Positions 21,835 through 56,467 of a DNA stretch of 64,000 nucleotides are shown here, one piece after another. The DNA comes from Burkholderiales bacterium (GTDB lineage Bacteria; Pseudomonadota; Gammaproteobacteria; Burkholderiales; SG8-39): assembly GCA_050741015.1 (NCBI GenBank), contig JBOIFE010000116.1:108-64107 (forward strand), in the 5' to 3' direction. The translations under genes and the position numbers were made by a program. Every line of letters starts with the position of its first letter. The first letter of the stretch is position 1. Below the pieces are notes generated by a model. That model saw only the letters and a program-made list of their open reading frames with translations, was not told the origin of the DNA and did not search any database.

Positions 21835-22923
21835 CTACTCGTGCTGCCGGAGGACCGTGTGGCCGTACTTCTTCACCAGCGCGTCGCGCTCGGCCTCGCG
21901 CAGGTCCGCACGCGCCATTTCCTCGACCAGCTCATCGAAGGAGGTCTTCGCGGTCCAGCCGAGCTTCGCCTTCGCCTTCGATGGATCGCCGAGCAGCGTA
22001 TCCACCTCCGCCGGGCGGAAGTAGCGCCGGTCGACGGCGACGACCGTGCGGCCCTTCTCGTCGAGCGCATGCTCGTCCGCGCCCGCGCCACGCCAGGCAA
22101 GTTTCATGTCGAGCTTCTTCGCTGCGAGATTGACGAAGTCGCGCACGCTGTGCTGCTTGCCGGTCGCGATGACGAAATCCTCGGGCGCGCTCTGCTGCAG
22201 GATGAGCCACTGCGCCTCGACGTAGTCGCGCGCGTGGCCCCAGTCGCGGCGCGCGTCGAGGTTGCCTAGGTAGAGACAGTCCTGCAGCCCGAGCTTGATG
22301 CGCGCGAGCGCGCGCGAGATCTTGCGCGAGACGAAGGTCTCGCCGCGGATCGGCGACTCGTGGTTGAACAAGATCCCGTTGCACGCAAACATGCCGTAGG
22401 ACTCGCGGTAATTCACCGTAATCCAGTAGGCGTAGAGCTTGGCCGCGCCGTAAGGCGAGCGCGGATAGAAGGGCGTGGTCTCCTTCTGCGGCGTCTCCAG
22501 CACCTTGCCGTAGAGCTCGGAGGTCGAGGCCTGGTAGAAGCGCGCCTTCTTTTCCATGCCGAGGATGCGGATCGCTTCCAGCAACCGCAGCGTGCCGATG
22601 CCGTCGGAGTCGGCCGTGTATTCGGGCTCCTCGAAGCTCACCGCGACGTGGCTTTGCGCGGCGAGGTTGTAGATCTCGTCGGGCTGCGACTGCTGGATGA
22701 TCCGCGTCAAGCTCGACGAGTCGGTCATGTCGCCGTAGTGCAGGATCAAGCGGCGGTCTTGCTCGTGGGGATCCTGGTAGAGATGATCGATCCGTTGCGT
22801 GTTGAAGCTCGAGGCGCGGCGCTTGATGCCATGCACTTCGTAGCCCTTGCCGAGCAGCAATTCGGCGAGGTAGGCACCGTCCTGTCCGGTGATGCCGGTG
22901 ATCAGTGCGACTTTGCGGGTCAT
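21835..22923 (-). CDS. gmd: GDP-mannose 4,6-dehydratase, long form
   Basis: Internal ATG of the 21835..23949 ORF. Motifs [60 protein letters not shown] and [12 protein letters not shown]. Confidence 0.92.
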
Positions 22924-23759
22924 GCCAACGCGGATGTTACCTCGGTGAGCTGCACTTCCCAGGATTCGAGCGCGAGCCCTGTGTCGTTGCGCAGCTTCGA
23001 GCAGTCGAGCCTCGAACTCCGAGGCCGGCGCGCTGGCGTCGGATAGTCCTCGGTGCGGATCGCCACCACCGGCGTCGCGAGGCCCGCGCCTTTCAGGATC
23101 GCGCGCGCGAATCCGCACCAGGACGTCTCGCCTCCCGCGGTCATGTGATAGAGCCCGTGCGCGCCTTTCGCCAGCAGTTGCGGCGTCGCTCGCGCGATGG
23201 CAAGGCTCGAGGTCGGCGCCCCGACTTGGTCGTCCACGACGCGAAGCTCGGGCCGATCCTTGGCGAGGCGCCGCATCGTGAGGAAGAAATTCTTCCCGCG
23301 CGGCCCGTACACCCAGCTTGTGCGCAGGATCAGGTGCCGGCAGCCGCTTGCCTGGATCGCCTGCTCGCCCGCGAGCTTGGATTCGCCGTAGACGCTGATC
23401 GGCCGAGGCGGATCGCTTTCGATGTACGGCGACGCCTTGTCTCCGGCGAAGACGTAGTCCGTCGAGTAATGAACGAGCATTGCGCCGATGCGATTGGCTT
23501 CCTCGGCGAGCACGCGGGGCGCAGTTGCATTGACGGCGAAAGCGAGGTCCCGCTCGGACTCGGCCTTGTCGACCGCAGTGTAGGCGGCCGCGTTCACGAT
23601 GATGTCGGGCTGCAACGCACGCACGGCGGCGGCAAGCGGCGGCGCGTCCGCGAGGTCGAGCCCATAGCGGTCGAACACCCGTACCTCGCCCATCGGTGCG
23701 AGGGTCTGCCTGAGCTCCCAGCCGACCTGGCCGGTGGCGCCGGTCAGCAGGAGCCTCAA
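22920..23759 (-). CDS. rmlD: dTDP-4-dehydrorhamnose reductase
   Basis: TTG start (TTGA overlap with the rmlC stop). Motifs [14 protein letters not shown] and the catalytic [10 protein letters not shown]. The stop overlaps the gmd ATG (ATGA). Confidence 0.85.
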
Positions 23760-24301
23760 GCGTAGGTCTCGGCGGAGGCGAGCGGCACGCCGCGACGATC
23801 CTTCTCCGCCAGCACCGGCGCGCCCGCCAGGGGCCAGCGGATGCCGAGCGCGGGGTCGCTCCAGAGCAGCGTGCGCTCCTGCTCCGGCGCGTAGTAGTCG
23901 GTGGACTTGTAGAGCACGTCGGCCGAGTCCGACACGACGACGAAGCCATGCGCGAAGCCGGCCGGAATCCACGCGATGCGCCTTGACTCCGCGGATAGCG
24001 TGAATCCCGTCCACTTGCCGAAGGCCGGCGAGCTGCGGCGCAGGTCCACTGCCACGTCCCAGATCTCGCCCGCGAGCACCCGGACGAGCTTTCCCTGCGC
24101 CTGGCGGACCTGGTAGTGCAGGCCGCGCAGCACGTTCTTCGCCGAGCGCGAGACGTTGTCCTGCACGAAGTCGGTATCGATGCCGGTCGCCTTGTGAAAA
24201 GCGCGCCGGTTGTAGGCCTCGTAGAAGAAGCCGCGGTCGTCGCCGAACACCCTGGGCTCGAGCAACAGCACGCCCGGCAGCTCGGTGGGGACCACCTGCA
24301 T
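23756..24301 (-). CDS. rmlC: dTDP-4-dehydrorhamnose 3,5-epimerase
   Basis: [17 protein letters not shown] and PAGFAHGF. 181 aa. ATGA overlap with the rmlA stop. Confidence 0.9.
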
Positions 24302-25176
24302 CAGAACACCTTGTCGGCCAGCACGCGCAGCAGGTACTCGCCGTAGCCACTCCTGGCGAGCGGCCGCGCGAGCGCGCGCAACTGGCGCGCGCTCACCCAA
24401 CCCTGGCGGTAGGCGATCTCCTCCGGGCAGGCGACCTTCAGCCCCTGGCGTTTCTCGATCGTCTCGATGAAGTGGCCGGCCTCGAGCAGCGACTCGTGCG
24501 TGCCCGTGTCGAGCCAGGCGTAGCCGCGGCCCATCGGCACCACGTCGAGCTCGCCCCACTCCAGGTAGCGGCGATTGACGTCGGTGATCTCGAGCTCGCC
24601 GCGGGGCGACGGCCGCAGGCCTTCGGCGATCTTCACCACCCGAGGGTCGTAGAAATACAGGCCCACGACCGCGTAGCGCGACTTGGGCTTCTTCGGTTTT
24701 TCTTCCAGGCTCACCGCGCGGCCCTTCGCGTCGAACTCGACCACGCCGTAGCGCTGCGGGTCCGTGACCGGGTAGGCGAACACGGTCGCGCCGCGTTTCC
24801 TCTTCGCCGCGCGCGCCAGGAGCGCCGAAAGGTCGTGTCCGTGGAACAGGTTGTCGCCCAGGACAAGCGCGACCCGATCGCGCCCGATGAATGGCTTGCC
24901 GATGAGAAACGCCTGCGCCAGGCCCCCGGGCCGCGGCTGCACGGCGTACGAGAGCTTGAGGCCCCAGCGTCGTCCATTGCCCAGAAGCTCACGGAAGCGC
25001 GGCGTGTCCTCGGGCGTGGAAATCACCAGGATGTCGCGGATTCCCGCGAGCATCAGCGTGCTGAGCGGGTAGTACACCATCGGCTTGTCGTAGACCGGCA
25101 GCAGCTGCTTGGACACGACCTGCGTCACCGGGTACAAGCGCGTGCCGGACCCGCCAGCGAGGATGATGCCCTTCAC
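24301..25176 (-). CDS. rmlA: glucose-1-phosphate thymidylyltransferase
   Basis: GTG start (GTGA overlap). Motifs [23 protein letters not shown] and [10 protein letters not shown]. Confidence 0.92.
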
Positions 25177-26183
25177 GCCGCGGCCTTCCGAGCGCGCCGC
25201 TCGAGATACCAGCGCACCGTTTGCTTCAGCCCCGAGGCGAAGGTTTCCGCGGGGCGCCAGCCAAGCTCGCGCTCGATCTTTCGTGCGTCGATCGCGTAGC
25301 GCCGGTCGTGGCCTGGGCGGTCCTTGACGAAGGAGATGAGGTCCGAGTAGCTGCCACCCGTGCGCGGCTGCGCGTCGTCGAGCAGCGCGCACAGCGAGCG
25401 GACGAGGTCGATGTTCCTCATTGGCGCCGCGCCGCCGATGTTGTAGACCTCGCCGGGCCGGCCGCGCGCGAGCACCTGGCGGATCGCCTCGCAGTGGTCG
25501 AGCACGTAGAGCCAGTCGCGCACGTTCTGGCCGTCGCCATAGACCGGCAGCGGCTTGCCGGCGAGCGCCTGGTGGATCATGAGCGGGATGAGCTTTTCCG
25601 GGAACTGGCGCGGCCCGTAGTTGTTCGAGCAGTTCGTGGTGAGCGTCGGCAGGCCGTAGGTGTGCCAGTACGCGCGCACGAGGTGGTCGGATGCGGCCTT
25701 GGACGCGCTGTAGGGGCTGTTCGGCGCATAGGGCGTCGTCTCGCTGAACGCGGGATCGTCGGGCCCGAGCGAGCCGTAGACCTCGTCGGTCGAGACGTGA
25801 AGGAACCGGAACGCCTCGCGCTCGCCCGCGGGCAAGCTCGCCCAGTACGCGCGCGCCTCCTCGAGCAGGTTGAACGTGCCCACGACGTTCGTCTGCACGA
25901 ACGGCGCCGGCCCCTCGATCGAGCGGTCGACGTGGCTTTCGGCCGCGAAGTGCAGCACGGCACGCGGCCTGTGACGCTGCAGCAGCCCGCGCACGAGCGC
26001 GCGGTCGCAGACGTCGCCCTTGGTAAAGGCGTGCCGCATGTCACCGCGCAGCTCGTCCAGGTTGGCGAGGTTGCCGGCATAGGTCAATTTGTCGAGCGTG
26101 ACTACAGCCTCGCCGGTCGCGGCGACCGTCGTTAGCACGAAGTTGGAGCCGATGAAACCTGCGCCGCCGGTGACGAGCAGCAT
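25173..26183 (-). CDS. rmlB: dTDP-glucose 4,6-dehydratase
   Basis: [24 protein letters not shown] and [12 protein letters not shown]. 336 aa. Confidence 0.92.
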
Positions 26184-26190
26184 GGGCCGA

Positions 26191-27963
26191 TTATGCCGTC
26201 GCGGAGAGCGGCCGCGCCGCGAACTGCACCCGGTGCAGGCGTGCGTAGACGCCCCCGCGCGCGAGGAGCTCCGCATGCTTGCCCGACTCCACCACCCGGC
26301 CCTGCTCGAGCACCGCGATGCGGTCGGCGCGCTCGATCGTGGACAGGCGGTGGGCGATGACGATGGTGGTGCGCCCGCGCATCAGCGCCTCGAGCGCCGC
26401 CTGCACGTGGCGCTCGGATTCCGAGTCGAGCGCGGAGGTCGCCTCGTCGAGGATCAGCACCGGCGCGTTCTTGAGCAGCGCGCGCGCGATCGCCAGGCGC
26501 TGGCGCTGGCCGCCCGAGAGGCGCATGCCGTTCTCGCCGATCAGCGTATCCAGGCCCTCGGGCGTCTCGAGGATGAAGCTCAGGGCGTGCGCGGCTTGCG
26601 CGACCGCCTCGACTTCCTGCTTGCTCGCCCCACCCAGGCGGCCGTAGGCGATGTTGGCGTAGATCGTGTCGTTGAACAGCATGATGTCCTGCGACACGAG
26701 CGCGAGGTTGCCGCGCAGGCTCTCAAGCGTCAACGACTGCAGGTCGTGCCCATCCAGCGTGATGCGGCCCGCATCGGGCGAATAGAAGCGAGGCAGCAGG
26801 TTCACGAGCGTGCTCTTGCCGCCGCCCGAGGCGCCCACCAGCGCGAGCGTCTGGCCCGGCTGCACGCGCAGGCTCACATCGCGTAGCGCCGGCTCGTTGC
26901 GCGTGGGATAGGTGAAGGTGACGCTTTCATAGGCGATCTCGCCCTTCGCGCGATCGAGTGTCACCGTGCCGTGGTCCTCCTCCACCGGCGAGTCGATCAT
27001 GCCGAAGACGCTTTCGGAGGCGGCCAGCCCGCGCTGCAGCACCGCGTTGACGTCGGTCAGGTGCTTGATCGGGGCGAAGAGCATGACCATGGCAGTAAAG
27101 AACGAGGCGAATTCGCCCGCGGAGACGCGCGTGCCGATCGTGTCCTGCAGCGCTACGTAGACGATCACGGCCACCGCCGAGGCCGCCAGCAGGTGCGTGG
27201 CGGGCGTAATGAGCGCCTCGGGCACCTTCTGGCGCATGTTGAATCCGCGCAGCGTGCCGATCGCGCGGGCAAAACGTTTTCCTTCGTAGTCCTGGCCGCC
27301 AAACACCTTGACCACGCGATGGCACTCGATCGTCTCCTCCAGCACGTGCACCACGTCGCCCAGGGCCCGCTGGGATGCGCGCGCCATGCTGCGCAACCGC
27401 CGCGAGAGCATGCGCACCATGCCGCCGACGAGCGGCGCGATGACGAACGCGATGAGCGTGAGGCGCCAGTTGAGATACAGAAGCCAGCCGAGCAGGCCGA
27501 TGATCACAATCGAGTCGCGCACCAGTACCGTCGCCGCCGTCGTGGCGGCCGCGCTCACGTTGGCGACGTCATAGGCGACGCGGGAAAGCAGCGCGCCCGC
27601 GGTCTGGTCGTCGTAGGCCCGGGTGGGAAACCTCACCAGCCGCGCGAACATACCGGCGCGCAGGTCGAGCACCACCTTCTCGGCGACCCAGGTCATGCTG
27701 TACTGGCCGACGAAAGTGAAGGCTCCGCGCACCACGAAGATGCCGATGATGCCCAGCGCGATCAGCGTCGGCGACAGCAGCGACTTGCCGCCGCCGAAAT
27801 TGCCGTCCAGCAGCGGCTTGAGCAGCATTGGAAAGAGCGGCTCGGTCCCCGCCGCCACCATGTTGCCGAGGATCGCCACCACGAACGCTTGCGCGTACGG
27901 CCGGACGTAGGACAGAAGGCGGCGGTACAGGTCGCGGCCGGCGTGGGCATACCCTTGAGACAT
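26191..27963 (-). CDS. msbA: lipid A export ATP-binding/permease protein
   Basis: 590 aa half-transporter. The N-terminal 6-TM domain begins LLSYVRPY. Walker [10 protein letters not shown], signature LSGGQRQR, Walker [13 protein letters not shown]. Confidence 0.9.
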
Positions 27964-40648: not shown

Positions 40649-40681
40649 CCGGCGTCTGCTTCGGCAATCCAGCGCATCACG

Positions 40682-41410: not shown

Positions 41411-41490
41411 GGTGGAGCTGTCGAATGACTACAAGGGGGTCGCTTCTTTCCTCGAGGACGACATCTTTTGGAATCCACCACCTGCGGCGA

Positions 41491-42360: not shown

Positions 42361-42413
42361 TCAATTTGCTCTTAACTAGGAAATGCTTCAATCAACACTC
42401 AGGAGCCAGCGCG

Positions 42414-43718
42414 TCAACCTACCTCTCGGAAGCCCCGAGACTCGTCCACCCAAGGCAGTACAGGCGCCAACATCGTGGGCCTCTTGTTGATCCAGTACGG
42501 TGAATCGCTGCTTCCGCCTTGCACTTCCATGTAAATTGTCGGGACACGCTGACGCGGCTCGAATAGCCATTCCGAATAGTGCAATCCACCAATCAGTTCC
42601 AGCTGATAGACACCTTCATTCAACAATCGTGGCGGAATTCTGGATCGCACCATATGCGATCCGGGTTCCAGTTTCACCGTTGTGCCATCTCCAGCATCTG
42701 TGTTGTATGACCAGTAAAGGCATGCCCCCTCCTGCGTATATAGCGCATAGCCTATCGTAAGGTTTTCGTTGAATTGCTCCACCTTTCCTTCAATTGTCAC
42801 GTATGCATCTTCGTCGGCTCTCATCGGCATTTGAAGTGGCCTCCCGTTCTCAGATGCAACATAGAAGCGCTTCGGCGAAAAGTATGGATTTTCATACTCC
42901 CCACCGCCATTTTCCCAAATCGAGCTCGCGTGACTAGCATTCATACCTACGTAGCTTCGAATTACCGAATCGACGTCATCCGAGTACAACGCAAGTCTCC
43001 CCTCGGAGATGAGCATCGCGCTCGTGCACAATTGACGGACCGCGCTCATGTTGTGGCTGACAAACAGCACAGTCCGCCCGCTTTGAGCCACTTCCGCCAT
43101 TCGCCCTAAGCACTTCCTCTGGAAAGAAACATCCCCAACCGCCAGCACCTCGTCCACCACAAGAATCTCCGGCTCCAGGTGTGCCGAGACCGCGAATGCT
43201 AGACGGACATACATGCCGCTCGAGTAGCGCTTGACCGGTGTATCTAGGAACCTCTCGATCTCCGCAAAAGACACTATGTCGTCAAACTTGCGTTGGATCT
43301 CGCTTCCACTCATGCCCAGTATCGCGCCATTCAAGAAGATGTTTTCGCGGCCTGTGAGCTCTGGATGAAACCCCGTTCCGACCTCAAGCAGGCTTGAAAC
43401 CCTTCCGCACATAGTTACGCGGCCCGCAGTGGGCGCGGTGATCCGAGAGAGAATCTTAAGAAGCGTGGACTTCCCCGCCCCATTCTTTCCAATGATTCCT
43501 ACGCGCGCTCCCTCTCTCACCTCGAAATTGATATCTTGTAGGGCCCAGAAGGACTCACTGTGTACATTGGATTCGTTCCGACGAAATGGGTTGATCAATC
43601 GCCGGCCAAACCCTCTGGCGGCCGCGCTCAGAGCATCGCGGAGCGTGTTATAGCGATCCGCGTGCTCATGTCGGATCACATAAGACTTTCCTAGCCCTTC
43701 AGCTTTTATCGCTAACAC
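42414..43718 (-). CDS. wzt: O-antigen/teichoic-type ABC exporter ATP-binding protein with C-terminal glycan-binding extension
   Basis: GTG start. Walker A GKNGAGKST, Wzt/TagH-type signature YSSGM, Walker B ILVVDEVLAVGD. About 180 extra C-terminal residues, predicted beta-rich, as in Wzt_C carbohydrate-binding domains. Confidence 0.85.
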   Translation of the reverse strand: MLAIKAEGLGKSYVIRHEHADRYNTLRDALSAAARGFGRRLINPFRRNESNVHSESFWALQDINFEVREGARVGIIGKNGAGKSTLLKILSRITAPTAGRVTMCGRVSSLLEVGTGFHPELTGRENIFLNGAILGMSGSEIQRKFDDIVSFAEIERFLDTPVKRYSSGMYVRLAFAVSAHLEPEILVVDEVLAVGDVSFQRKCLGRMAEVAQSGRTVLFVSHNMSAVRQLCTSAMLISEGRLALYSDDVDSVIRSYVGMNASHASSIWENGGGEYENPYFSPKRFYVASENGRPLQMPMRADEDAYVTIEGKVEQFNENLTIGYALYTQEGACLYWSYNTDAGDGTTVKLEPGSHMVRSRIPPRLLNEGVYQLELIGGLHYSEWLFEPRQRVPTIYMEVQGGSSDSPYWINKRPTMLAPVLPWVDESRGFREVG

Positions 43719-43727
43719 CGTGTCCTA

Positions 43728-44555
43728 CTAAATTACGTCGGCAAAGGTACGTTCGACGCGCCGAAAATATGCCATACCACTAATCAGTAGTAACGCGACC
43801 AGCACCATCGATAGAACGAAGCCTGGCCAGTAGAGTTGTGTACGCCCCGCTAAGAGAGACCAGCGGAAGCCGTCGATTACCCCGACCATGGGATTCAACG
43901 AGTAAACAAGTCGCCATCTTTCGGGGACTACCGAACTGCTGAAGCCTACGGGGGAGATAAACAGGCCCAACTGCAATATGAACGGAATGAGGTACCTGAA
44001 ATCGCGATACTTGACGTTTAACGCCGCCATCCACAATCCCGTGCCAAGGGCCGCGCTGGCGCCCGCAATGACGAACAACGGTAGTGCGAGCGCGCGCCAG
44101 TCTGGGAGCAGTTGATACCAGACCATCAATCCCATGAGGATTAGCAACGAAACGAGGAAGTCGGCAAACGCAACGACCACTGTGCTTGCAGGTATCAGCA
44201 GACGAGGAAAATACGTCTTTGAGATTAGGCTTGCGTTCCCGATCAAACTATTCGCGACCTCCGAGAATGCGCTTGAGAAAAATTGCCAAGGTAGCATGGC
44301 AGCGGACACGAGAATTGGATACGGGACGCCGTCTGAGGGAAGGCCGGCCAGACGACCAAAGACAACGGTAAAGACTACGATGGTCAGAAGCGGCTTTATG
44401 AGCGCCCACAACACCCCGATCGCGGTCTGCTTGTAGCGAACCAATATGTCGCGCCACGCAAGGAAATAGAACAACTGCCGGTACCGCCAAAGGTCGCGCC
44501 AATAGTGGCGTTCGGCTCGGCCAGCCTCGATGACTAATGTCGGCTTGGTTTCCAT
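43728..44555 (-). CDS. wzm: ABC-2-type polysaccharide exporter permease
   Basis: 275 aa with six hydrophobic segments. N-terminus YWRDLWRYRQLFYFLAWRDILVRYKQTAIGVLWA, typical of Wzm/TagG. Confidence 0.85.
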   Translation of the reverse strand: METKPTLVIEAGRAERHYWRDLWRYRQLFYFLAWRDILVRYKQTAIGVLWALIKPLLTIVVFTVVFGRLAGLPSDGVPYPILVSAAMLPWQFFSSAFSEVANSLIGNASLISKTYFPRLLIPASTVVVAFADFLVSLLILMGLMVWYQLLPDWRALALPLFVIAGASAALGTGLWMAALNVKYRDFRYLIPFILQLGLFISPVGFSSSVVPERWRLVYSLNPMVGVIDGFRWSLLAGRTQLYWPGFVLSMVLVALLLISGMAYFRRVERTFADVI

Positions 44556-45591: not shown

Positions 45592-45625
45592 GAGTCCGTG
45601 ATTGTATGGGAAACTTGCGACGCCG

Positions 45626-46486
45626 ATGGCGACGTTCTCGATCCTCATCCCAAGCTGGAACAACCTGCCTTACCTGCGCCTGTGCGTAGAGAGCCTGCGC
45701 CGGCATTCCGCGCGCGAACACCAGGTTGTCGTGCATGCAAATCCCGGTACGGACGGCACTCGCGAATGGTTGCTCGAAGAACGCATCGACCACACCGCGA
45801 GCGACGTAAACATCGGCATTTGCCACGCGCTCAACATTGCCGCGACCAAAGCGCGCTGCGAGTACCTTATCTACGTAAATGACGACATGGTCTTTGCGCC
45901 AGGATGGGACGTGGCGCTGGATCGTGCAATCGAGCGCGTTGCGCGCAACGAAATGTTTACGCTATCCGCGACCATGATCGAGCCGGTCGCCACCGGCAAT
46001 TCCTGCGTGGTAATCGCGAACTACGGGCGCGACCCGGCGAGCTTCGAGCTCGAGCGCTTTGCGAGCGATGCGCCTAAACTCGCGCGGGCGGATTGGCTCG
46101 GCGCAACCTGGTCGCCAACTCTGGTCGCTCGTTCGCTCTGGCACCAAGTCGGCGGATACAGCATCGAATTCTCGCCCGGCATGAGCAGCGAGAATGACTT
46201 TTCGATGAAGCTATGGAGCGCCGGATGCCGCGTATTTCTCGGCGTCGGCGACAGTCTCGTGTATCACTTCGCGGAAGTCTCGACGCGGCGCATGCGCAAG
46301 AACGACGGCCGGCAACAGTTCCTGCTCAAATGGGGCACTACGCAGTCGGCCTTCAGCAAGTACTATTTGCGTCGCGGCGATGTCGTGCCCTCAGGGGAAC
46401 AAGGGGTTCGCCTCCCGGAGCCTGAGCCCTCGTGGGGATTGCGGTGGCAGGGCGTCAAGGCCCAATTGAAGCGCCGCCTCGGTTGA
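45626..46486 (+). CDS. glycosyltransferase family 2-like
   Basis: FSILIPSWNNLPYLRLCVESL and YVNDDMVF. ATG at 45626 preferred over TTG at 45602. Confidence 0.7.
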   Translation: MATFSILIPSWNNLPYLRLCVESLRRHSAREHQVVVHANPGTDGTREWLLEERIDHTASDVNIGICHALNIAATKARCEYLIYVNDDMVFAPGWDVALDRAIERVARNEMFTLSATMIEPVATGNSCVVIANYGRDPASFELERFASDAPKLARADWLGATWSPTLVARSLWHQVGGYSIEFSPGMSSENDFSMKLWSAGCRVFLGVGDSLVYHFAEVSTRRMRKNDGRQQFLLKWGTTQSAFSKYYLRRGDVVPSGEQGVRLPEPEPSWGLRWQGVKAQLKRRLG

Positions 46487-46533: not shown

Positions 46534-47400
46534 TCACTCGCCACTGGCGTACTTGGCACGCAAGTAGGCCCCGAGGGCTTCGTTCCAACTACGCATCGTT
46601 ACGCCCAGGGCCCGCGCCTTGGTGTTCCCTAGAATCGAATAGAGCGGCCGGCGCATGCCGCCTGTCCTGCCGCCGCGGTCCACCGGCACGACCTCTGTCT
46701 GCGTGCCGCACAGACGCACGATCTCGCAGGTGAACTCGTACCAGGAACATTCGCCCTCGTTCACCAGGTGGTAGATACCCGGCGGCGCGAATTTCCCCAG
46801 CAGCGCATAGACGGCGCGGCTGAGGTCCTCGGTTGACGTCGGCGACACGACCTGCTCACTCGCCATCTCAATGCGCTTGCCGGCGCGCGCCTCGGTCACA
46901 CGGGCATCGACGAAGTTACCGCCCTTGGATCGCGCCCCGGAGCGCCCGTAGAGGCCGCACGTGCGTATCACCACGGCGTGCGCCGGCGCCGAGGCGAGCG
47001 CCGCGTACTCGCCGGCCAGCCGGCTCAAGCCGTAGACCTGCAAGGGGAACGGCCGGTCGTCCTCGCGCCAGGGCTCGCAGCGCGCGCCGCCGAAGACATA
47101 GTCGCTGCTAAAGGTCACCAGGCGCGCGTCCTGCCCGGCACAGGCCACGGCCAGATCCCGCACCGCCGTACAGTTAACCAGAAACGCCTGGCTCGGCTCG
47201 TCCTCGCATCGGAGCAGGTTGTGGAAAGCGGCGCAGTTGATCACTACATCGGGGCGCGAGGCCGCGACAAGTCGCGCGCCTTCCCCCGCCCGCGCGAGAT
47301 CGAGCTCCGCGCGCGACGGCGCGACGATCTCGTGACCGGGGTTGCTGCGCAGCAGGTCGCCGCCGAGTTGCCCGGTGGCGCCGATCAGCAGGATCTTCAT
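46534..47400 (-). CDS. RmlD-like NDP-4-ketohexose reductase (catalytic motif reads YxxxR)
   Basis: ATGA overlap start. Motif MKILLIGATGQLGGDL. The position equivalent to VYGxSKLAGE reads VYGLSRLAGE, with the Arg encoded by CGG (checked on the DNA). Confidence 0.75.
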   Translation of the reverse strand: MKILLIGATGQLGGDLLRSNPGHEIVAPSRAELDLARAGEGARLVAASRPDVVINCAAFHNLLRCEDEPSQAFLVNCTAVRDLAVACAGQDARLVTFSSDYVFGGARCEPWREDDRPFPLQVYGLSRLAGEYAALASAPAHAVVIRTCGLYGRSGARSKGGNFVDARVTEARAGKRIEMASEQVVSPTSTEDLSRAVYALLGKFAPPGIYHLVNEGECSWYEFTCEIVRLCGTQTEVVPVDRGGRTGGMRRPLYSILGNTKARALGVTMRSWNEALGAYLRAKYASGE

Positions 47401-47924
47401 GGCAGCAGGGCGTAGGAGCGGTCCCGCTCGGACAGCGTGGGCCCAGGCAGGGGCCAGCAGATGGCGAGCTTCGGATCGTCCCAACGCAGCCCGCGCGCGA
47501 GCTCCGGTTGGTAGGGCACCGACATCTGGTAGAGGACCTCGGCGTCGTCGGCGAGCGTCTGGAAACCGTGCGCGAAGCCTTCCGGCACGTACAGCGCGAG
47601 CCGGTTTGCCGCGTTTAGCTCCGCGGCGTGCCAGCGCAGGCGCGTGGCGGATTCCTCGCGCAGATCCACGATCACGTCCCAGATGGCGCCGCGCGTGCAA
47701 CGCACGACCTTGGCCTCCTCGTGTGGTGCCGCTTGGTAGTGCAGGCCACGCAAGGTCCCGCGGTTGTGGTTCCAGGAGACGTTGCATTGCGCCACAGCCG
47801 GGTTGAGACCGTGGCGCCTGAACTCCTCGGCGCAGAACGAGCGCGCGAAGAAGCCACGCTCGTCCTCCAGCCGCTCGAGCTCGATGGCAAAGGCGCCGGC
47901 AAGCGGCAGCGGCACGAATTTCAA
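47397..47924 (-). CDS. RmlC-like NDP-4-ketohexose 3,5-epimerase (cupin)
   Basis: TTG start (TTGA overlap). Motifs DERGFFARSF, LRGLHYQ and PEGFAHGF. Confidence 0.8.
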   Translation of the reverse strand: MKFVPLPLAGAFAIELERLEDERGFFARSFCAEEFRRHGLNPAVAQCNVSWNHNRGTLRGLHYQAAPHEEAKVVRCTRGAIWDVIVDLREESATRLRWHAAELNAANRLALYVPEGFAHGFQTLADDAEVLYQMSVPYQPELARGLRWDDPKLAICWPLPGPTLSERDRSYALLP

Positions 47925-49156
47925 TCGAGAACCCTCGTCTCGGGAATCGGCACCACGAATCGGCCGCCCCACGCATGAATCGCGCCCATCTGCGCTACGA
48001 CCTCGTCCTGCAGGTTCCACGGCAGTATCAGCACGTAGTCGGGCTTGTCCCGCAGGATGCGCTCGGGCGCGTGGATCGGAATGTGCACGCCGGGAAGGAA
48101 ACGCCCCTGCTTGTGCGGGCTGCGGTCCACCGTGTACGCAAGCAGATCCGCCCGGACACCACAATAGTTGAGAAGTGTGTTGCCTTTAGCGGGGGCGCCG
48201 TACCCGACGACACGCTTGCCGACTTCTTTTGCGCCAATGAGAAACTTGAGCAGGCTACGCTTTGCCGAGCGCACCTGGTCGGCGAATGCGCGGTACGTGT
48301 CGGCGCGCTCCAGGCCGGCCGCTCTCTCGCGGTTACGCAACTCCACAACCTTGTTCGACACCGGAAGCGCGGCGTTCGCCGCATGCCGCGCATAGATGCG
48401 CAGCGACCCTCCATGCGTCGGTATCTCGTCCACGTCGAACAGGGTCAGGCCGTGCGCCGCGAATACGTGCTCGGCAACGAGGAAAGAGAGATACGAGAAG
48501 TGTTCATGGTAGATGGTGTCGAACTGGCTCTCCTGCATCAGCCTGAGCAGGTGCGGAAACTCCATGGTCGCCACGCCGCCGGGCTTGAGCAGCACGGTCA
48601 TGCCGCGCACGAAGTCGTTCAGGTCCGGCACGTGCGCGAGCACGTTGTTGCCGAGGATCAGGTCCGCCTTGCGCCCGGCGGAGGCGAGGTCGGTCGCGGT
48701 CTTGGTTCCGAAGAACTTCACCAGCGTCGGCACGCCCTTCTTCTCGGCTACTGCCGCGACATTCGCCGCGGGCTCGATGCCGAGAACGGGAATGCCCTGC
48801 TCTACGAAGTACTGCAACAAGTATCCGTCGTTGCTCGCGATCTCGACCACGAAGCTGGCGGACGCCAGGCCCAGTCGCTTCTTCATCGCGTGCGCGTACG
48901 CCCTCGCGTGCGCCAGCCACGTATCCGAATAAGAGGAGAAGTAGGCGTAGTCGCTAAAGATCTGCTCCGGCGTCTCGAACTCTTCAAGCTGCACGAGAAA
49001 ACACTTTTCACAGACCCAGGCATGCAGCGGATAGAAGCGCTCCATGCGATTCAGGTCTTCTACTTTGAGGTAGGAATTCGATGGCGGCGACATGCCCAGG
49101 TCGGCGAATGAGAGCGTGAGAGGGGCCGCGCAGAAGCGGCAGATTCCCCGCTTCAT
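47921..49156 (-). CDS. NDP-hexose C-methyltransferase (TylC3/TcaB9-like)
   Basis: ATGA overlap start. N-terminal zinc ribbon CRFC..(x)..CEKC, SAM fold VVEIASNDGYLLQYF, and C-terminal C-methyltransferase domain VVGYGAPAKGNTLLNYCGV...PDYVLILPWNL. Confidence 0.75.
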   Translation of the reverse strand: MKRGICRFCAAPLTLSFADLGMSPPSNSYLKVEDLNRMERFYPLHAWVCEKCFLVQLEEFETPEQIFSDYAYFSSYSDTWLAHARAYAHAMKKRLGLASASFVVEIASNDGYLLQYFVEQGIPVLGIEPAANVAAVAEKKGVPTLVKFFGTKTATDLASAGRKADLILGNNVLAHVPDLNDFVRGMTVLLKPGGVATMEFPHLLRLMQESQFDTIYHEHFSYLSFLVAEHVFAAHGLTLFDVDEIPTHGGSLRIYARHAANAALPVSNKVVELRNRERAAGLERADTYRAFADQVRSAKRSLLKFLIGAKEVGKRVVGYGAPAKGNTLLNYCGVRADLLAYTVDRSPHKQGRFLPGVHIPIHAPERILRDKPDYVLILPWNLQDEVVAQMGAIHAWGGRFVVPIPETRVLD

Positions 49157-50217
49157 GCAGGCGACAAAGACATGTAGCGCTCGATTTGCCCAAGCGTCAG
49201 TTGCCGCGCGTCGCCGCCTTGTGCCTGCTTCTTGTACCAATCCACCGTCCACTCGAGCGCGGCCTGCAGGCGCAATCGCGGGCGCCAGCCCAGGCGCGCG
49301 CGAGCCTTCGTGCTGTCGAGCCTGAGGAAGTGAGCCTCGTGCGGGTGTGAGCCCTTGTCCACGGTCCAGCCTGCTGGCGGACCCCACAGGCGAGCCACTG
49401 TGGATACGATCGTCTCCACCGGGACAGCGTCCTCATTGTCCGAGCCAAAATTCCATCCTTCCGAGAAATCCCGAGGCGCGGCGCACAGGCGCTCAGCCAG
49501 CTGCAGATATCCCGACACCGGCTCGAGCACGTGCTGCCATGGGCGGACCGCTTTCGGATTGCGCACGAGTACAGATTTGCCTGCAGCGGTCGCGCGCACC
49601 ATATCCGGAACGATTCGGTCCGCCGCCCAGTCGCCCCCGCCAATCACATTGCCGGCCCTTGCCGACGCGAGCGCCGGTGCATCCTCGCCGCTGAAAAACG
49701 ACGCGCGGTAGGCGGTGGTCACCAGCTCGGCGCAGCCCTTGCTGCTGCTGTAAGGGTCCCGGCCGCCCATCGGATCGTCCTCGCTGTAGGACTGGCCGGT
49801 TTCCAGGTTCTGGTAGCACTTGTCGCTGGTGACGTTGACGATCGCGCGCACACTGCCTGCGCGGCGGGCCGCTTCCAGTACGTGCACAGTGCCCAGCACG
49901 TTCGTGGCGTAGGTACCAACCGGGTCCTCATAGGACGGGCGCACCAGCGACTGTGCCGCAAGATGGAAGACGACTTCGGGCTGGAATGCAGTGATCGTTT
50001 TCGACAGCGTCGCGAGATCACGGATGTCGGCGGTGGTGCTGGCGACGCCAGATGCGGGTCCGGCCAATTGCCACAGCGAAGGCATGCTCGCCGGCGCCAG
50101 CGCGTAGCCGGCGACTCGTGCCCCGAGCGAGCCGAGCCACAGCGCGAGCCACGCCCCCTTGAATCCGGTGTGACCGGTGACGAAGACTTTCTTGCCCGCC
50201 CAGAACCCGCCGCCCAT
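49153..50217 (-). CDS. rfbG: CDP-glucose 4,6-dehydratase
   Basis: KKVFVTGHTGFKGAWL, VNVTSDKCY, PYSSSKGCAELV and RPWQHVLEP. Confidence 0.85.
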   Translation of the reverse strand: MGGGFWAGKKVFVTGHTGFKGAWLALWLGSLGARVAGYALAPASMPSLWQLAGPASGVASTTADIRDLATLSKTITAFQPEVVFHLAAQSLVRPSYEDPVGTYATNVLGTVHVLEAARRAGSVRAIVNVTSDKCYQNLETGQSYSEDDPMGGRDPYSSSKGCAELVTTAYRASFFSGEDAPALASARAGNVIGGGDWAADRIVPDMVRATAAGKSVLVRNPKAVRPWQHVLEPVSGYLQLAERLCAAPRDFSEGWNFGSDNEDAVPVETIVSTVARLWGPPAGWTVDKGSHPHEAHFLRLDSTKARARLGWRPRLRLQAALEWTVDWYKKQAQGGDARQLTLGQIERYMSLSPA

Positions 50218-50984
50218 TACCACTTCTTCCACGGCGGATTGCCGCCCGCCCAGAGCTCCTCGAGATAATTCTTGTCGCGCAGAGTGTCCATCGGCTGCCA
50301 GAAGCCGCGATGAGAGTAAGCGGCCAGCTGGCGCTCGCGCGCTAGCCGCTCGAGTGGGTCGCGCTCCCACACAGTGGCGTCGCCCGCGATGAGCTCGACA
50401 ACCGAGGGCGAGCACACGAAAAAACCCCCGTTAATCCAGCCGCCGTCGCCCTTGGGCTTTTCCTGGAAGCTGGTCACGCGCGCGCCGTCCATGACCAGCG
50501 AGCCGAAGCGCCCGGGCGGCTGCACCGCGGTAAGCGTCGCCTTCACCTTCTGCGCCCGGTGGAAGGCGATCAGCGCTTTCAAGTCGACGTCGGCGACGCC
50601 GTCGCCGTAGGTGAAGCAGAAGTCCTCTTTGCCCAGGTGCGGCGCCACCCGCCTGAGGCGCCCCCCGGTCTGTGTGGCCTCGCCCGTGTCCACCAGCGTC
50701 ACCTTCCAGGGCTCGGCGCTCTTCTGGTGCACCTGCATCGAGTTGTCGCGCATGTCGAACGTGACGTCCGACATGTGCAGGAAGTAGTTGGCGAAGTACT
50801 CCTTGATGACGTAGCCCTTATATCCAAGGCACACGATGAACTCGTCCACGCCCTGCGCGGAATAGATCTTCATGATGTGCCAGATGATCGGCTTGCCGCC
50901 AATCTCGATCATCGGCTTGGGCTTCACGGCGGACTCCTCGCTAATCCGCGTACCCATGCCGCCGGCGAGAATTACCGCTTTCAC
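50217..50984 (-). CDS. rfbF: glucose-1-phosphate cytidylyltransferase
   Basis: GTG start giving [18 protein letters not shown]. Motifs [17 protein letters not shown] and [12 protein letters not shown]. Confidence 0.85.
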
Positions 50985-50991
50985 GCTCTCA

Positions 50992-52065
50992 TTATCGCCC
51001 TGATTCCAACAGCTCGAGCGCCGCTTCGATGACCCGCGCGGCGTCCATGCGATCGAGGCAATCCGCGCGGCTCTGCCGGTGCCGCTCGCAGCCCTCCTGC
51101 TGGCACGGGACGCATGCGAGCGAAGGCTCCTGCAGCAGCACGACGCGATCGCGCCGCTGGAGCGGCTGCACTTTCTCGTACGGCTCAGCGAGTCCCTCGC
51201 GCGGGATGGGCCCCCACAGCCGCGGATCGGTCGGGCCGAAGAGCGCAACCGTCGGTGTGCCGCACGCGGCGGCGAGGTGCGTGGTCGCGGTATCCGGACC
51301 CACGTAGACCGCCGCCCGCCGGAGGAGGTCCGCGGTCTGGGCGAACCGCAAGCGCCCGGTCGTGTCGGTGACGGAGGGGCGCACTCCCGCGAGCACCTCG
51401 CGCGCGTACGCAAGTTCGTCCGCTCCCGGGCCGCCCGTGATCACGACGCGCATCCCCTGGCCGTGCAGCCACGCGATCAGCGCGTGCCAGCCCGGCGTGT
51501 TCCAGCGCTTGTAGCGAAAGCGCGGCGCGAGGTGCAGCACCGCGAAGCGCTCGGTGGCCGCATCGAACTCGACGAGCTCGCGCCAGGCCGCGGCCGGCGT
51601 GTGCGCGGTCGGCGCGACCATCGCCGGCCGCCACTCAATCTCGAGCGCCTCCGCGAGCGCGCGGTAGGCGACCGGCCGCGGCTGCTCGGCCGGCGAAATC
51701 ACCGACCGCTCGAGCAGCAGCGATTTCCACCAGCGCTTGCCCGGCTCCGGCGGCAGGAGCCCCACGCGCCGTCGCGCCGCCAGCCAGCCGCAGAGGTGCG
51801 GGCGGTCCGCCGTCTCCGCGATCACCGCGAGGTCATATCGTTGCCCCAGCGCGCGCCAGAGCGGGAGGATCTCGCCGCGCTCGGTCGCGATCGCGCGGCG
51901 CACGTCCGGATTGCCTTCGAGCGCGCCCTCTCCACCAGCGAAGACGAGCGCGTCGATCGCGGCGACCGGGTAAGCGGCGCGCAGCGACCGGATGAGCGGC
52001 GTGGCGAGCAGCAGGTCGCCGAGGTAGCGCAGCGAGACGACGAGGATCGAGCGCGGGTCGTTCAT
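50992..52065 (-). CDS. GT9-family LPS heptosyltransferase
   Basis: [22 protein letters not shown] and [26 protein letters not shown]. Confidence 0.8.
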
Positions 52066-52607: not shown

Positions 52608-54680
52608 TCAGTCAAGCCTGAATTCCGCTGAAACGTAGAACGTCCGCCCCGGCAGGGGATACACCGAGTAGCGGTCGGGGGTGAACGCGCTGCGCACCGC
52701 GTAAGTGTAGTATTTCTCGTCGAACAGGTTGTTCGCCGCCGCCGCGAGCCGGCCCCAGCCGAAGTCGTGCGCGAGCTTGAGGTCCGCCACGGCGAACGCC
52801 GGAATCTGCGTGCCGAGCGTGTTGGGCTCGTCGTTGTCCATGTACTGCGCGCTCATCGCGGTGACCGTCCCCGTCAGCTGTGTGCGCGCATCGATGTCCC
52901 AGGTCGCGCCAAGGTCAATCTTGTGCTCGGGCACGAGCGGCACGTGGCGGCCGGCGATGTCGAGGTTGGTGCCGATGGCGAAGCCGCTGCCCGGCAGCAC
53001 GCCGTCGAGAAAGCGTGCGTCGGTCCAGGTATAAGCGCCGAAGATGCGAAGCTGCCCAGCGACGCGCGACTCACCCTCGAGCTCCATGCCCTGGCGACGT
53101 GACGGCGGGAGGTTCGTGTTGCCTACGCCGGTGGTGAACGGGTCGAGATGGATTTCATCCTGCACGTCGATCTGGAACAGGGTCAGGCGCGTCCGTGCCC
53201 GAGCGCCACGCCATTCGCCCCCTATCTCGTTCGTGCGCGCGGTCTGCGGCCGCAGGATCTGGAACTGGGCGTTGAAGAATGCGTCGTTCTCGTAGATCTC
53301 GTCGACGCCCACGAACCGGTACGAACGCCCGGCGCGCGCGAACGCGTTCCATTCGGCCGAAAACACCTGCTTGAGCCCGAGCTCCCAGGCGTGCTGCTGC
53401 TGGCGCTGGGACGCGGCCGGCGCTTCGGTGCCGAAGGCGCCGCCCGGCGCCGTCGGGTCGAGCTTGTCGGTCGCGTCGTAGTCGACGCTTTCCTCGCGCC
53501 AGCCCAGCGTGGCGAGCGTGCTCGATGTCAACTGGATTGCGTCCTGCGCATACCAGCCCAGGCTTTCGCGGTCGATCCCCACGCGGTTCACCGGCTGCCC
53601 GATGTCCTGCGGCACGCCGGTGCGCTTCGAGTCGTAGCGCCACTGCACCCAGTCCACGCCGAGCGTCAGCCGGTGCGAGGTGCCGCCCAGTCCGAACGGG
53701 ATGCGAAGCCGCGGCGTGAGCGCGGTGTAGTCGAGCTCGTCGTCGCGATACGAGGGAAACCCCATCTGGTCGAAGTACGCCGTCTGGTGCTTGCCGCGCC
53801 AGTCGGCGCCCACGTTGAGCTCGGTATCGCCGATCCGGGTGACCAATGTCGCGCCGGCGCGGTCGCCGTCGCGCGTGGACCAATCGAGCGGCGTCTGCGC
53901 GCCCCGCGGGTCGGCCGCGTACTCGTCCAGGCCGATCGAGGGCTGGATCGTGCGCGCGCCCGGCAGGCGCAGGTCCTGCCGGTCGGTCCCGAAGCGCATG
54001 TCGAGATAGCTTTCGCCGGGGCCCCAGCGCAGGTTCAGGCTCGAGTTGCGCTGCAGGTTCCGGTTGTTGTCGCGATAGCCCTGGGAGTCGTAGCCGTAGA
54101 GCGTCGCGTTCACGCCGAGCGACTCGCCCGCGGCGCTCGCGTACAGCTGCCCTTCATTGGTGCGGTAGGTGCCGACGCGCGCCTGCGCCTCGAATGCCTT
54201 GCCCTGCTTGAGCGGCGAGCGCGTGATGATGTTGATTACGCCCGCGGTCGCGCCGTCGCCATAGAGCACGGCGCCCGTGCCGCGCAGGATCTCGATGCGC
54301 TCGATCGAGGAGAGTGGAATCGCCGCCCATTGCACGCCCGACAGGTCGATGTCGGTGACGCGGCGCCCGTCGACCAGGATCAGCGTGTTCTGCGTGCCCG
54401 TCACGCCGAAGCCGCGCAGGTCGATCGAGGTCGTGGCCGCGTTGTTGCCGTAGAAGTCCTTCATCGTGAGCCCCGCCTGCCCGGAGAGGAGCTCGGGCAG
54501 CGTTCGCGCCGGGCTGCGCGCGATGTCATCGGCGTTCAGCACGGTCACGCTGGCGGGAAGGCGCTGCGCCTCTTCCGGGAACCGCGTGGCCTCGATAAGA
54601 ACCGCGCCGTCCGACTGGGCGAGCACGTGTGTGGCGTATGTGGCGAGCGCGGCGAGCGCCGCAACGGTTGCGATGCGCAT
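52608..54680 (-). CDS. btuB: TonB-dependent outer-membrane receptor, cobalamin-type (btuB-like)
   Basis: Internal ATG giving signal peptide MRIATVAALAALATYATHVLAQ. Plug motifs VTVLNADDI and IERIEILRGTGAVLYG. Preceded by a cobalamin riboswitch. Confidence 0.85.
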   Translation of the reverse strand: MRIATVAALAALATYATHVLAQSDGAVLIEATRFPEEAQRLPASVTVLNADDIARSPARTLPELLSGQAGLTMKDFYGNNAATTSIDLRGFGVTGTQNTLILVDGRRVTDIDLSGVQWAAIPLSSIERIEILRGTGAVLYGDGATAGVINIITRSPLKQGKAFEAQARVGTYRTNEGQLYASAAGESLGVNATLYGYDSQGYRDNNRNLQRNSSLNLRWGPGESYLDMRFGTDRQDLRLPGARTIQPSIGLDEYAADPRGAQTPLDWSTRDGDRAGATLVTRIGDTELNVGADWRGKHQTAYFDQMGFPSYRDDELDYTALTPRLRIPFGLGGTSHRLTLGVDWVQWRYDSKRTGVPQDIGQPVNRVGIDRESLGWYAQDAIQLTSSTLATLGWREESVDYDATDKLDPTAPGGAFGTEAPAASQRQQQHAWELGLKQVFSAEWNAFARAGRSYRFVGVDEIYENDAFFNAQFQILRPQTARTNEIGGEWRGARARTRLTLFQIDVQDEIHLDPFTTGVGNTNLPPSRRQGMELEGESRVAGQLRIFGAYTWTDARFLDGVLPGSGFAIGTNLDIAGRHVPLVPEHKIDLGATWDIDARTQLTGTVTAMSAQYMDNDEPNTLGTQIPAFAVADLKLAHDFGWGRLAAAANNLFDEKYYTYAVRSAFTPDRYSVYPLPGRTFYVSAEFRLD

Positions 54681-54721
54681 GTGTGAACCCTCCCCGGCGT
54701 CATCCCCGACGCCCCAAAGCG

Positions 54722-54935
54722 GTTGAGAAAGACGCCAAGGCCGGTCTCCGGACTCGCGAGCGGGCGCGCGTGCATCTTCGCGCCTGGGCGTGCCGCCTTC
54801 CCGTGAGGATCGCCTCACAGTGGCCGGGGGGCACGCCCTCTCGCCTACCGTTGCGGGGGCAGTACAGGCATTGCGGCGGGGCCGCGCACCTGTTTCCCGT
54901 TTCATCCGCTGGGGTTGGAACCCGCGCGGACACCT
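54722..54935 (-). promoter_or_regulatory. cobalamin (B12) riboswitch in the btuB leader
   Basis: On the minus strand the leader reads GGTTCC...GAAACGGGAAACAGGTGCG...GCCCCCGCAAC...CCACTG...GGGAAGGC. A B12 box AGTCCGGAGACCGGCC follows (plus-strand coordinates 54739-54754). Next is a GGCGTC/GACGCC hairpin next to the GGAGGG Shine-Dalgarno sequence. Confidence 0.8.
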
Positions 54936-54955
54936 TGCCGTCGACTACGAGGACG

Positions 54956-54961
54956 ATTATA
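54956..54961 (-). promoter_or_regulatory. candidate -10 box (TATAAT) of the btuB/riboswitch promoter
   Basis: The minus strand reads TTGTGC-17 nt-TATAAT about 20 nt upstream of the riboswitch start. The -35 region overlaps the btuF start codon on the other strand. Confidence 0.35.
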
Positions 54962-54970
54962 CAAACCGGC

Positions 54971-55858: not shown

Positions 55859-55915
55859 AGCCTTCTCAGGAAACACATTCAGAACCGCCCCTTATTTCTT
55901 GACGCAGTAGCGGTT

Positions 55916-56454: not shown

Positions 56455-56467
56455 TCGTTTGTTGCTC

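Follow-up and report, generated by a model that had tools for sequence, protein, structure and literature searches.

A translationally coupled five-gene operon predicted to make a CDP-activated C-methyl-branched 6-deoxy-L-hexose in a lipopolysaccharide locus of a Burkholderiales bacterium

The five-gene cassette

The DNA analysed here, called the window below, is a stretch of 64,000 nucleotides from contig JBOIFE010000116.1 (assembly GCA_050741015.1, positions 108 to 64,107) of a Burkholderiales bacterium. On its minus strand, at 46534-50984, lie five genes that encode, in this order, RfbF, RfbG, a C-methyltransferase, an RmlC-like epimerase and an RmlD-like reductase (Table 1). Every junction between these genes is a start/stop overlap of one or four bases. 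The stop codon of the RfbF gene, TAA (50219-50217), and the ATG of the RfbG gene (50217-50215) have one base in common, which gives TAATG at 50219-50215, while the RfbG/methyltransferase junction is ATGA at 49156-49153, the methyltransferase/RmlC-like junction is TTGA at 47924-47921 and the RmlC-like/RmlD-like junction is ATGA at 47400-47397. A sequence-only reading of the window had described five co-directional genes joined by four such overlaps, and all of the open reading frames (ORFs) and junctions were found again at the same positions. The five enzyme identities proposed there are each backed by profile searches with Pfam models and with TIGRFAM-type models that carry equivalog cutoffs. 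A chance arrangement is excluded because the same five genes recur in unchanged order, their ends abutting, in the full-cassette relatives described below. A scan for promoters and terminators over 45.5-52.8 kb gave no match, which is uninformative at 68% GC.

Table 1. Cassette genes and other features of the window, with the profile matches or alignments that identify them
Feature	Position	Strand	Details
RfbF/DdhA-type glucose-1-phosphate cytidylyltransferase	50217..50984	-	255 aa, GTG start; TIGR02623, PF00483
RfbG/DdhB-type CDP-glucose 4,6-dehydratase	49153..50217	-	354 aa, ATG start; TIGR02622
NDP-hexose C-methyltransferase, TylC3/TcaB9/KijD1/MtmC family	47921..49156	-	411 aa; PF08421, PF08484, SAM domains
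RmlC-like NDP-4-keto-6-deoxyhexose epimerase, second copy	47397..47924	-	175 aa, TTG start; PF00908, TIGR01221
RmlD-like NDP-4-ketohexose reductase, second copy	46534..47400	-	288 aa; PF04321, TIGR01214; Y123-x-x-x-R127
GT9-family glycosyltransferase	50992..52065	-	PF01075 101 bits; stop 7 nt before RfbF GTG
GT2-family glycosyltransferase, convergent with the cassette	45602..46486	+	PF00535
Wzm	43728-44555	-	PF01061
Wzt	42414-43718	-	434 aa; PF00005
FkbM-type methyltransferase	40682-41410		
Methyltransf_24 methyltransferase	35831-36637		
Canonical rmlB-rmlA-rmlC-rmlD set	22920..26276	-	Pfam matches, tblastn, ORF map
Canonical RmlC	~23795-24301	-	Cassette RmlC-like protein 42% identical (tblastn)
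Canonical RmlD	~22947-23741	-	Cassette RmlD-like protein 38% identical (tblastn)
CDP, cytidine diphosphate; NDP, nucleoside diphosphate; SAM, S-adenosylmethionine.

RfbF and RfbG

RfbF matches the TIGR02623 equivalog over its whole length (aligned 1-255/255) with 466 bits against a cutoff of 300, and the best non-CTP (cytidine triphosphate) profile scores 87 bits. It is from this equivalog membership that RfbF is predicted to use CTP. Its identity to the counterparts in the close relatives L002-L005 and L031 is 88-91% (related loci are given here by their L numbers). RfbG matches the TIGR02622 equivalog at full length with 475 bits (cutoff 278), and its sequence has SDK and YSSSK, so the YxxxK motif of the short-chain dehydrogenases/reductases (SDRs) is present.

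The well-known continuation from these two enzymes is the 3,6-dideoxyhexose route, and the sequence-only reading had stated that its DdhC (E1) and DdhD (E3) genes are absent. For E1 this stands. The only DegT-type genes of the window, at 12575-13765 and 13762-14997, belong to another polysaccharide cluster at a distance of 33 kb, and of the two the better one scores 181 bits with the RfbH/DdhC model, whose cutoff is 423. This pair at 12.6-15.0 kb was therefore rejected as E1, and by the RfbH/DdhC profile run on the DegT-type genes the 64-kb window has no E1-type gene. As for E3, no ferredoxin-reductase-type match was seen in the ORFs scanned at ~20.8-58.2 kb, with no search aimed at DdhD itself.

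The C-methyltransferase

The methyltransferase has all three domains of the TylC3/TcaB9/KijD1/MtmC architecture, namely the zinc domain PF08421 (85 bits), class I SAM domains and the C-terminal domain PF08484 (222 bits), and so both of the Pfam families that the sequence-only reading expected for 47921..49156 do match. The motifs that it had pointed out in the zinc ribbon and the C-terminal domain on either side of the SAM fold were located as CRFC at residue 6, CEKC at 49 and GYGAPAKG at 318, with C6, C9, C49 and C52 as the zinc cysteines. The closest solved relatives are MtmC (4rv9, 4e-84), KijD1 (5t64) and TcaB9 (3ndi), which are 38, 37 and 34% identical, respectively, and all three are sugar 3-C-methyltransferases that act on dTDP (deoxythymidine diphosphate)-4-keto sugars. 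Residues Y70, H175, Y216, E218 and H219 align with Y76, H181, Y222, E224 and H225 of TcaB9, which we take to be the active-site residues of the published mutagenesis (in this alignment the Protein Data Bank chain numbering equals the literature numbering plus 2). Judged from its architecture, solved relatives and catalytic residues, the enzyme truly belongs to the NDP-hexose C-methyltransferase family, as had been supposed. An O-, N- or chain-terminating methyltransferase, the last being the reading given to the homologue slr1610 of Synechocystis (PMC3769361), is ruled out by the domain architecture and the conservation of the active site.

The RmlC-like and RmlD-like proteins

The RmlC-like protein matches PF00908 with 208 bits and TIGR01221 with 166 bits (cutoff 156), and the RmlD-like protein matches PF04321 with 241 bits and TIGR01214 with 241 bits (cutoff 224). 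Thus, both clear the RmlC/RmlD equivalog cutoffs narrowly. The catalytic residues His62, Lys72, Tyr132 and Asp168 of the RmlC-like protein are present in conserved motifs. That the two are the housekeeping rhamnose genes is ruled out by the canonical rmlBACD set elsewhere in the window, after which come gmd and then a GDP (guanosine diphosphate)-fucose-synthase-like gene. Since that set is present and the cassette proteins have only 42% and 38% identity to its RmlC and RmlD, they are dedicated paralogues.

The enzymes of dTDP-L-noviose synthesis, NovV/T/W/U/S, come from the same five families as the cassette proteins, and NovU is a member of the TylC3 family. If the RmlC-like protein worked as a 3-epimerase and methylation took place at C5, the product after reduction would be a CDP-5-C-methyl (5,5-dimethyl) 6-deoxyhexose of the noviose type. 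The solved relatives of the RmlC-like protein do include NovW (2c0z), at 5e-31, but genuine RmlCs are nearer (5e-41 to 1e-36). Moreover, the methyltransferase has only 3-C-methyltransferases among its solved relatives and conserves their catalytic residues, and the branched 6-deoxyhexoses reported in Gram-negative glycans and nucleotide pools, namely, evalose, virenose and vinelose, are 3-C-methyl sugars. We therefore hold methylation at C5 to be very unlikely and predict C3 as the site.

In the RmlD-like protein the SDR motif reads Y123-G-L-S-R127, and in the alignment R127 takes the place of the catalytic Lys that the solved RmlDs 1vl0 and 3sc6 have. The sequence-only reading had called these proteins an RmlC-type 3,5-epimerase and an RmlD-type reductase; the families stand, with the difference that the reductase has YxxxR instead of YxxxK. 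We named it RmlD-like, and not RmlD, because the catalytic Lys is replaced by Arg. Arg is at this position in all eight cassette orthologues that were extracted (including those of L002, L003, L005, L006, L031, L032 and L034) and, among the 120 closest homologues (the best 120 database proteins, 70-100% identity), in 118, and Lys is kept in the more distant L020 and in the canonical RmlD of the window. By this pattern YxxxR is a fixed feature of the clade and not a lesion. [quoted passage not shown] However, Arg in nearly all of the closest homologues, together with 70-82% conservation of the protein, speaks for a functional enzyme that has not decayed, the score is above the RmlD equivalog cutoff, and the gene follows RmlC in the very place where other loci have their reductase. 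It is thus quite unlikely that the RmlD-like protein is not the 4-ketoreductase.

Distribution and variants of the cassette

The methyltransferase has more than 8000 related database proteins at E<=1e-20, of which the best 120 are 74-100% identical to it, and it matches 168 plasmid records, 58 of them from Sinorhizobium. The cassette is neither rare, given this number of homologues, nor unnoticed, since the genes are already annotated in Synechocystis and S. meliloti. The 32 non-redundant related loci compared here come from 25 species genomes, 4 plasmid records and 3 metagenome contigs, and among the genome loci the nearest belong to soil metagenome-assembled genomes (MAGs) of Betaproteobacteria/Burkholderiales. 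One locus, L001, is a Logan contig that presumably comes from the same organism as the window, since its five cassette proteins share 99-100% identity with those of the window.

Of the 32 loci, 25 have an RfbF-type gene within the fetched flank and 2 have a canonical RmlA nearby; in three of the seven loci that have no RfbF-type gene (L006, L011 and L015) the contig ends just upstream. The RfbF-RfbG-methyltransferase-RmlC core is found in at least six phyla (Proteobacteria, Planctomycetota, Acidobacteriota, Actinomycetota, Thermodesulfobacteriota and that of a Pontiella MAG). The full cassette of five genes, whose conservation the sequence-only reading had wished to see examined, recurs with its gene order kept and its gene ends abutting in L002-L006, L031, L032/33 and L034, with L004 and L006 interrupted by contig ends, and in a less similar form in L020. 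In the full-cassette relatives the methyltransferase is 72-86% identical to that of the window, and these loci include both ABC (ATP-binding cassette)-type and Wzx-type polysaccharide loci.

What varies is the gene after RmlC. In most related loci it codes for a reductase, which in L020 and the full-cassette relatives is RmlD-like and in L007, L010, L011, L013, L015 and L022 is an Epimerase-family SDR. L017 has an acyltransferase gene there, and L008 and one Peteryoungia cassette have a GT2 gene. In L025 (6158-12510) the core is followed by genes for a DegT aminotransferase, an N-formyltransferase and a CmcI-type methyltransferase, from which the predicted product would be a CDP-4-formamido-4,6-dideoxy-3-C-methylhexose with a kansosamine-like skeleton. 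Such variation is what would be expected of a shared 4-keto intermediate that is finished in different ways, and a reductase and a 4-aminotransferase (L025) after RmlC both fit a 4-keto intermediate.

Some of the related loci have further peculiarities. A conserved trio of genes lies directly after the cassette in L031 (12601-15818) and L032 (12641-15680) and codes for a protein with no Pfam match (357/312 aa, 37% identical), a Methyltransf_23 protein (46%) and a GT2 protein (47%), the last two being a candidate O-methyltransferase and a candidate dedicated glycosyltransferase; the trio has no counterpart in the window. L030, on the Peteryoungia desertarenae plasmid NZ_CP058351.1 (406362-416353), has two divergently transcribed cassette copies next to each other, one in the order RfbF-RfbG-methyltransferase-RmlC-GT2 and the other RfbF-RfbG-RmlC-methyltransferase-DegT, with methyltransferases 58% and 50% identical to that of the window. 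The methyltransferase homologues of L027 (Agrobacterium pusense pAt1) and of L014 and L018 (Tardiphaga), which are 58-62% identical, are more distant, have an RmlC-like gene and stand in another conserved context. In L027 and L014, the two loci in which neighbours were looked at, a class III aminotransferase and a DUF4910 aminopeptidase-like protein are also encoded, and L027 additionally has a PIG-L deacetylase and a divergent cytidylyltransferase. In the S. meliloti plasmid locus L029 the RfbF, RfbG, methyltransferase and RmlC homologues are 64, 47, 55 and 47% identical, respectively.

The gene neighbourhood bears on which nucleotide carries the sugar in the last three steps. To our knowledge, the members of the methyltransferase, epimerase and reductase families that have been characterised all use dTDP-sugars. 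With rmlA and rmlB in the window, these three enzymes might act on dTDP-4-keto-6-deoxyglucose from RmlA/RmlB and make dTDP-3-C-methyl-L-rhamnose, RfbF and RfbG serving some other CDP-sugar. This would agree with L031, where no canonical rmlD is seen beside rmlBAC, and with L014, L018 and L008, which have the methyltransferase and RmlC and no RfbF in the flank. On the other hand, RfbG yields a 4-keto intermediate that requires later enzymes, of which no others are present, all five cassette genes are translationally coupled, and the four core genes stay together in different phyla, for the most part with no rmlA/rmlB nearby (25 loci with an RfbF-type gene as compared to 2 with RmlA). Thus, the neighbourhood favours CDP over dTDP and agrees with the earlier claim that RfbF and RfbG feed the C-methyltransferase, and a mixture of carriers appears decidedly unlikely.

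Proposed pathway

Based on these findings, we propose that the five genes are a translationally coupled operon for a CDP-activated C-methyl-branched 6-deoxy-L-hexose that goes into the adjacent ABC-type O-polysaccharide, and we consider this proposal as a whole to be probable. RfbF would make CDP-D-glucose from CTP and glucose-1-phosphate and RfbG would convert it to CDP-4-keto-6-deoxy-D-glucose. The methyltransferase would then remove the proton at C3, beside the 4-keto group, and add the methyl group of SAM, by which C3 would be fixed with its hydroxyl inverted. The RmlC-like enzyme would epimerise C5, the sole centre left open to it, and the RmlD-like enzyme would reduce the 4-keto group to give CDP-6-deoxy-3-C-methyl-L-mannose (L-evalose) or CDP-6-deoxy-3-C-methyl-L-talose (the vinelose skeleton). 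Finally, a glycosyltransferase of the surrounding locus would bring the sugar into the ABC-transporter-dependent O-polysaccharide. We infer CDP as the carrier in the last three steps from the gene neighbourhood.

The sequence-only reading had placed 3,5-epimerisation after methylation, and at C3 this is impossible. Because the methylated C3 is quaternary and has no proton, the RmlC-like protein matters only at C5, and because the reaction passes through an enolate, it is the methyltransferase that determines the configuration of C3. With methylation at C3, the RmlC-like protein would functionally be a 5-epimerase like TylK and EvaD. TylC3-type methylation is reported to invert the C3 hydroxyl (PMC3539893), and starting from D-gluco, inversion at C3 and epimerisation at C5 lead to the L-manno/L-talo series, that is, to the skeleton of evalose or vinelose. 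The CDP-6-deoxy-3-C-methyl-L-hexose of the sequence-only reading is therefore stereochemically coherent. There is also precedent for such a sugar since the O-polysaccharide of Burkholderia andropogonis contains 3-C-methylrhamnose (PMC7203242), as does, according to Zdorovenko 2012 as cited in the same paper, the O-antigen of Azorhizobium caulinodans.

Several points weigh against this pathway. Membership of the methyltransferase family by itself does not separate C3 from C5 methylation, and the characterised enzymes of the last three families are on the side of dTDP, with gene neighbourhood as the only guide to the nucleotide specificity of the methyltransferase, epimerase and reductase. The reductase has Arg in place of the Lys of the SDR motif Tyr-x-x-x-Lys. 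No glycosyltransferase is conserved beside the cassette across the loci and for this reason the acceptor glycan is a guess. In the searchable literature, outside of which are most subscription journals, we found no assay of any CDP-cassette enzyme and no identification of a product, and the study of the slr1610 knockout measured standard sugars only and sought no branched sugar (PMC3769361).

The sequence-only reading went further and brought in vinelose, with spare O-methyltransferases of the locus supplying the 2-O-methyl group. We know of no CDP-linked C-methyl sugar that has been described other than CDP-vinelose (6-deoxy-3-C-methyl-2-O-methyl-L-talose), which has been known since the 1960s. 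Were it the product here, a methyltransferase of the locus would have to add the 2-O-methyl group on the nucleotide sugar and the reductase would have to give the talo configuration. By stereochemical reasoning (PMC3539893) the predicted skeleton is that of vinelose apart from C4 and the O-methyl group, A. vinelandii has an rfbFGC cluster (Hausman et al. 1998 as cited in PMC3769361; PMC3570484), and L031 and L032 have the conserved Methyltransf_23 gene after the cassette. In the window, however, no methyltransferase adjoins the cassette and the trio of L031 and L032 is missing. An FkbM-type and a Methyltransf_24 gene do exist, as had been said, but they are 5-10 kb off among polymer-level genes and neither is attached to the cassette, so their role in 2-O-methylation is pure conjecture. 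Furthermore, the C4 configuration, talo or manno, is not predictable, and the rfb genes of A. vinelandii, RfbC, RfbG and RfbF in strain DJ, are inside flagellar cluster II and not in a lipopolysaccharide cluster (PMC3570484). We consider CDP-vinelose an unlikely product of this operon. No Azotobacter was among the 25 close relatives from an exact-peptide-pattern scan of genome contigs, which is not evidence of absence, and no mention of vinelose was found in the searchable literature. The placement of rfbFGC in A. vinelandii raises the separate possibility that its CDP-sugar, possibly vinelose, might serve flagellin glycosylation rather than lipopolysaccharide (PMC3570484).

Returning to the CDP-3-C-methyl-6-deoxy-L-hexose pathway, it could apply to the cassette family as a whole. 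The family would then be the genetic basis of CDP-linked 3-C-methyl-6-deoxy-L-hexoses, with a CDP-3-C-methyl-4-keto-6-deoxyhexose as the hub and with finishing that is specific to the lineage, by the RmlD-like reductase of the Arg clade, by an Epimerase-family reductase or by a 4-aminotransferase and a formyltransferase. We put this wider proposal forward tentatively, at slightly less than an even chance.

Genes around the cassette

The cassette lies in what reads as a long lipopolysaccharide region, ~20.8-52 kb, with genes for an MsbA-like exporter, a WaaL-like ligase, an initiating sugar transferase, GT4, GT2 and GT11 glycosyltransferases and GalE. The GT9 gene upstream of RfbF is co-directional and is possibly the first gene of the transcription unit; it is not conserved beside the cassette in other loci. 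The convergent GT2 gene adjoins the cassette in L001 only among the loci compared, and by inference from its place could be one candidate user of the CDP-sugar. The probable destination of the sugar is the O-polysaccharide of the Wzm/Wzt ABC exporter, and in L031 wzm-wzt is directly upstream of the cassette.

The exporter genes are part of a segment at ~40000-44000 with a GC content of 53%, as compared to 68-70% elsewhere, which also holds the FkbM-type gene, a 289-aa ORF (41491-42360) and part of the GT11 gene. This suggests that a low-GC export/termination module was acquired horizontally. No tRNA gene was found in the window and hence none flanking this segment. A second polysaccharide cluster, of the Wzx type, is at ~9100-17200 with a MOP flippase (15383-17146), the two tandem DegT-type genes, the second of which (13762-14997) matches only the N-terminal half of the models, and GT4/GT2 genes. 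A second gmd-like gene forms the C-terminal part of the ORF at 10259-12184. On the other side of the cassette there is a TonB-dependent receptor gene at 52608-54905, and the minus-strand ORFs just upstream of it, 54902-55876 and 55879-56469, have no Pfam match (E<=1e-5).

Significance

The sequence-only reading was correct in what it observed, and its interpretation is the most reasonable one but has only partial support. With this locus a further member is added to a widespread cassette that is annotated and yet, as far as the searchable literature shows, biochemically uncharacterised. The value is therefore in the general pathway and not in the window locus, and its parts would not surprise a specialist. 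Branched C-methyl sugars are regarded as rare compounds that occur in antibiotic producers and in a few pathogens, Coxiella among them. If the proposal is true, CDP-borne methyl-branched 6-deoxy-L-hexoses would be widespread in environmental O-antigens, exopolysaccharides and perhaps flagellar glycans, and the pathway would be among the commonest biochemically uncharacterised nucleotide-sugar pathways of soil and water bacteria. It would also give candidate genes, in tractable organisms, for the orphan nucleotide sugar CDP-vinelose and for the evalose of the Burkholderia andropogonis and Azorhizobium O-antigens, and it would supply CDP-specific versions of glycodiversification enzymes.

Current annotation hides the pathway because the methyltransferase goes under generic names and the epimerase and reductase are named as dTDP-rhamnose enzymes. 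In IMG many methyltransferase homologues (P0004, P0010, P0014, P0017 and many more) are called '2-polyprenyl-3-methyl-5-hydroxy-6-metoxy-1,4-benzoquinol methylase', the RefSeq name in the plasmid records is 'class I SAM-dependent methyltransferase', and a cassette reductase (P0140) is called 'dTDP-4-dehydrorhamnose reductase'.

Comparison with known systems

The CDP-ascarylose pathway uses DdhA, DdhB, E1 and E3 and then the AscE 5-epimerase and the AscF reductase, which act on a CDP-4-keto sugar to give an L-sugar. The first two enzymes of this and the other CDP-3,6-dideoxyhexose pathways are equivalogs of the RfbF and RfbG of the window, which, in contrast, has no E1-type gene and no 3-deoxygenation and has the C-methyltransferase in that place. 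The RmlABCD pathway to dTDP-L-rhamnose follows the same logic in four steps as the cassette and shares its RmlC and RmlD folds; the cassette has in addition a methylation step, a cytidylyl carrier and the YxxxR reductase. Noviose differs in that its C5 is methylated after 3-epimerisation, on a dTDP carrier and for an aminocoumarin antibiotic.

Among Gram-negative systems, the O-antigen of Coxiella burnetii has virenose, a 6-deoxy-3-C-methylhexose for which the TylC3-like CBU_0691 has been proposed in a pathway that is in silico only (PMC3539893). Its product is D-gulo and needs no 5-epimerisation, and the carrier was proposed to be dTDP or GDP. In Synechocystis PCC 6803, slr0983 (rfbF), slr0984 (rfbG), slr0985 (rfbC) and slr1610 ('putative C-3 methyltransferase') are beside wzm/wzt, and the slr1610 knockout flocculated and had altered exopolysaccharide, which led its authors to their chain-terminator reading (PMC3769361). 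The order of these genes, RfbF-RfbG-RfbC-methyltransferase, is unlike that of the window. On pSymB of S. meliloti there are SMb21416 (ddhA), SMb21417 (ddhB) and SMb21418 ('NDP-hexose 3-C-methyltransferase') (PMC4053727). The sets of Synechocystis, S. meliloti and A. vinelandii have no RmlD-like gene reported, unlike the window.

The last three steps proposed here are those of dTDP-L-mycarose synthesis, in which they are carried out by the same three families (TylC3/EryBIII, TylK/EryBVII and TylC2/EryBIV), and the domain architecture and catalytic residues of the methyltransferase are common to both. The window differs in its predicted CDP carrier, in having no 2-deoxygenation genes and in being a proteobacterial lipopolysaccharide O-antigen locus and not an actinomycete antibiotic cluster, with a methyltransferase 34-38% identical to the solved dTDP enzymes.

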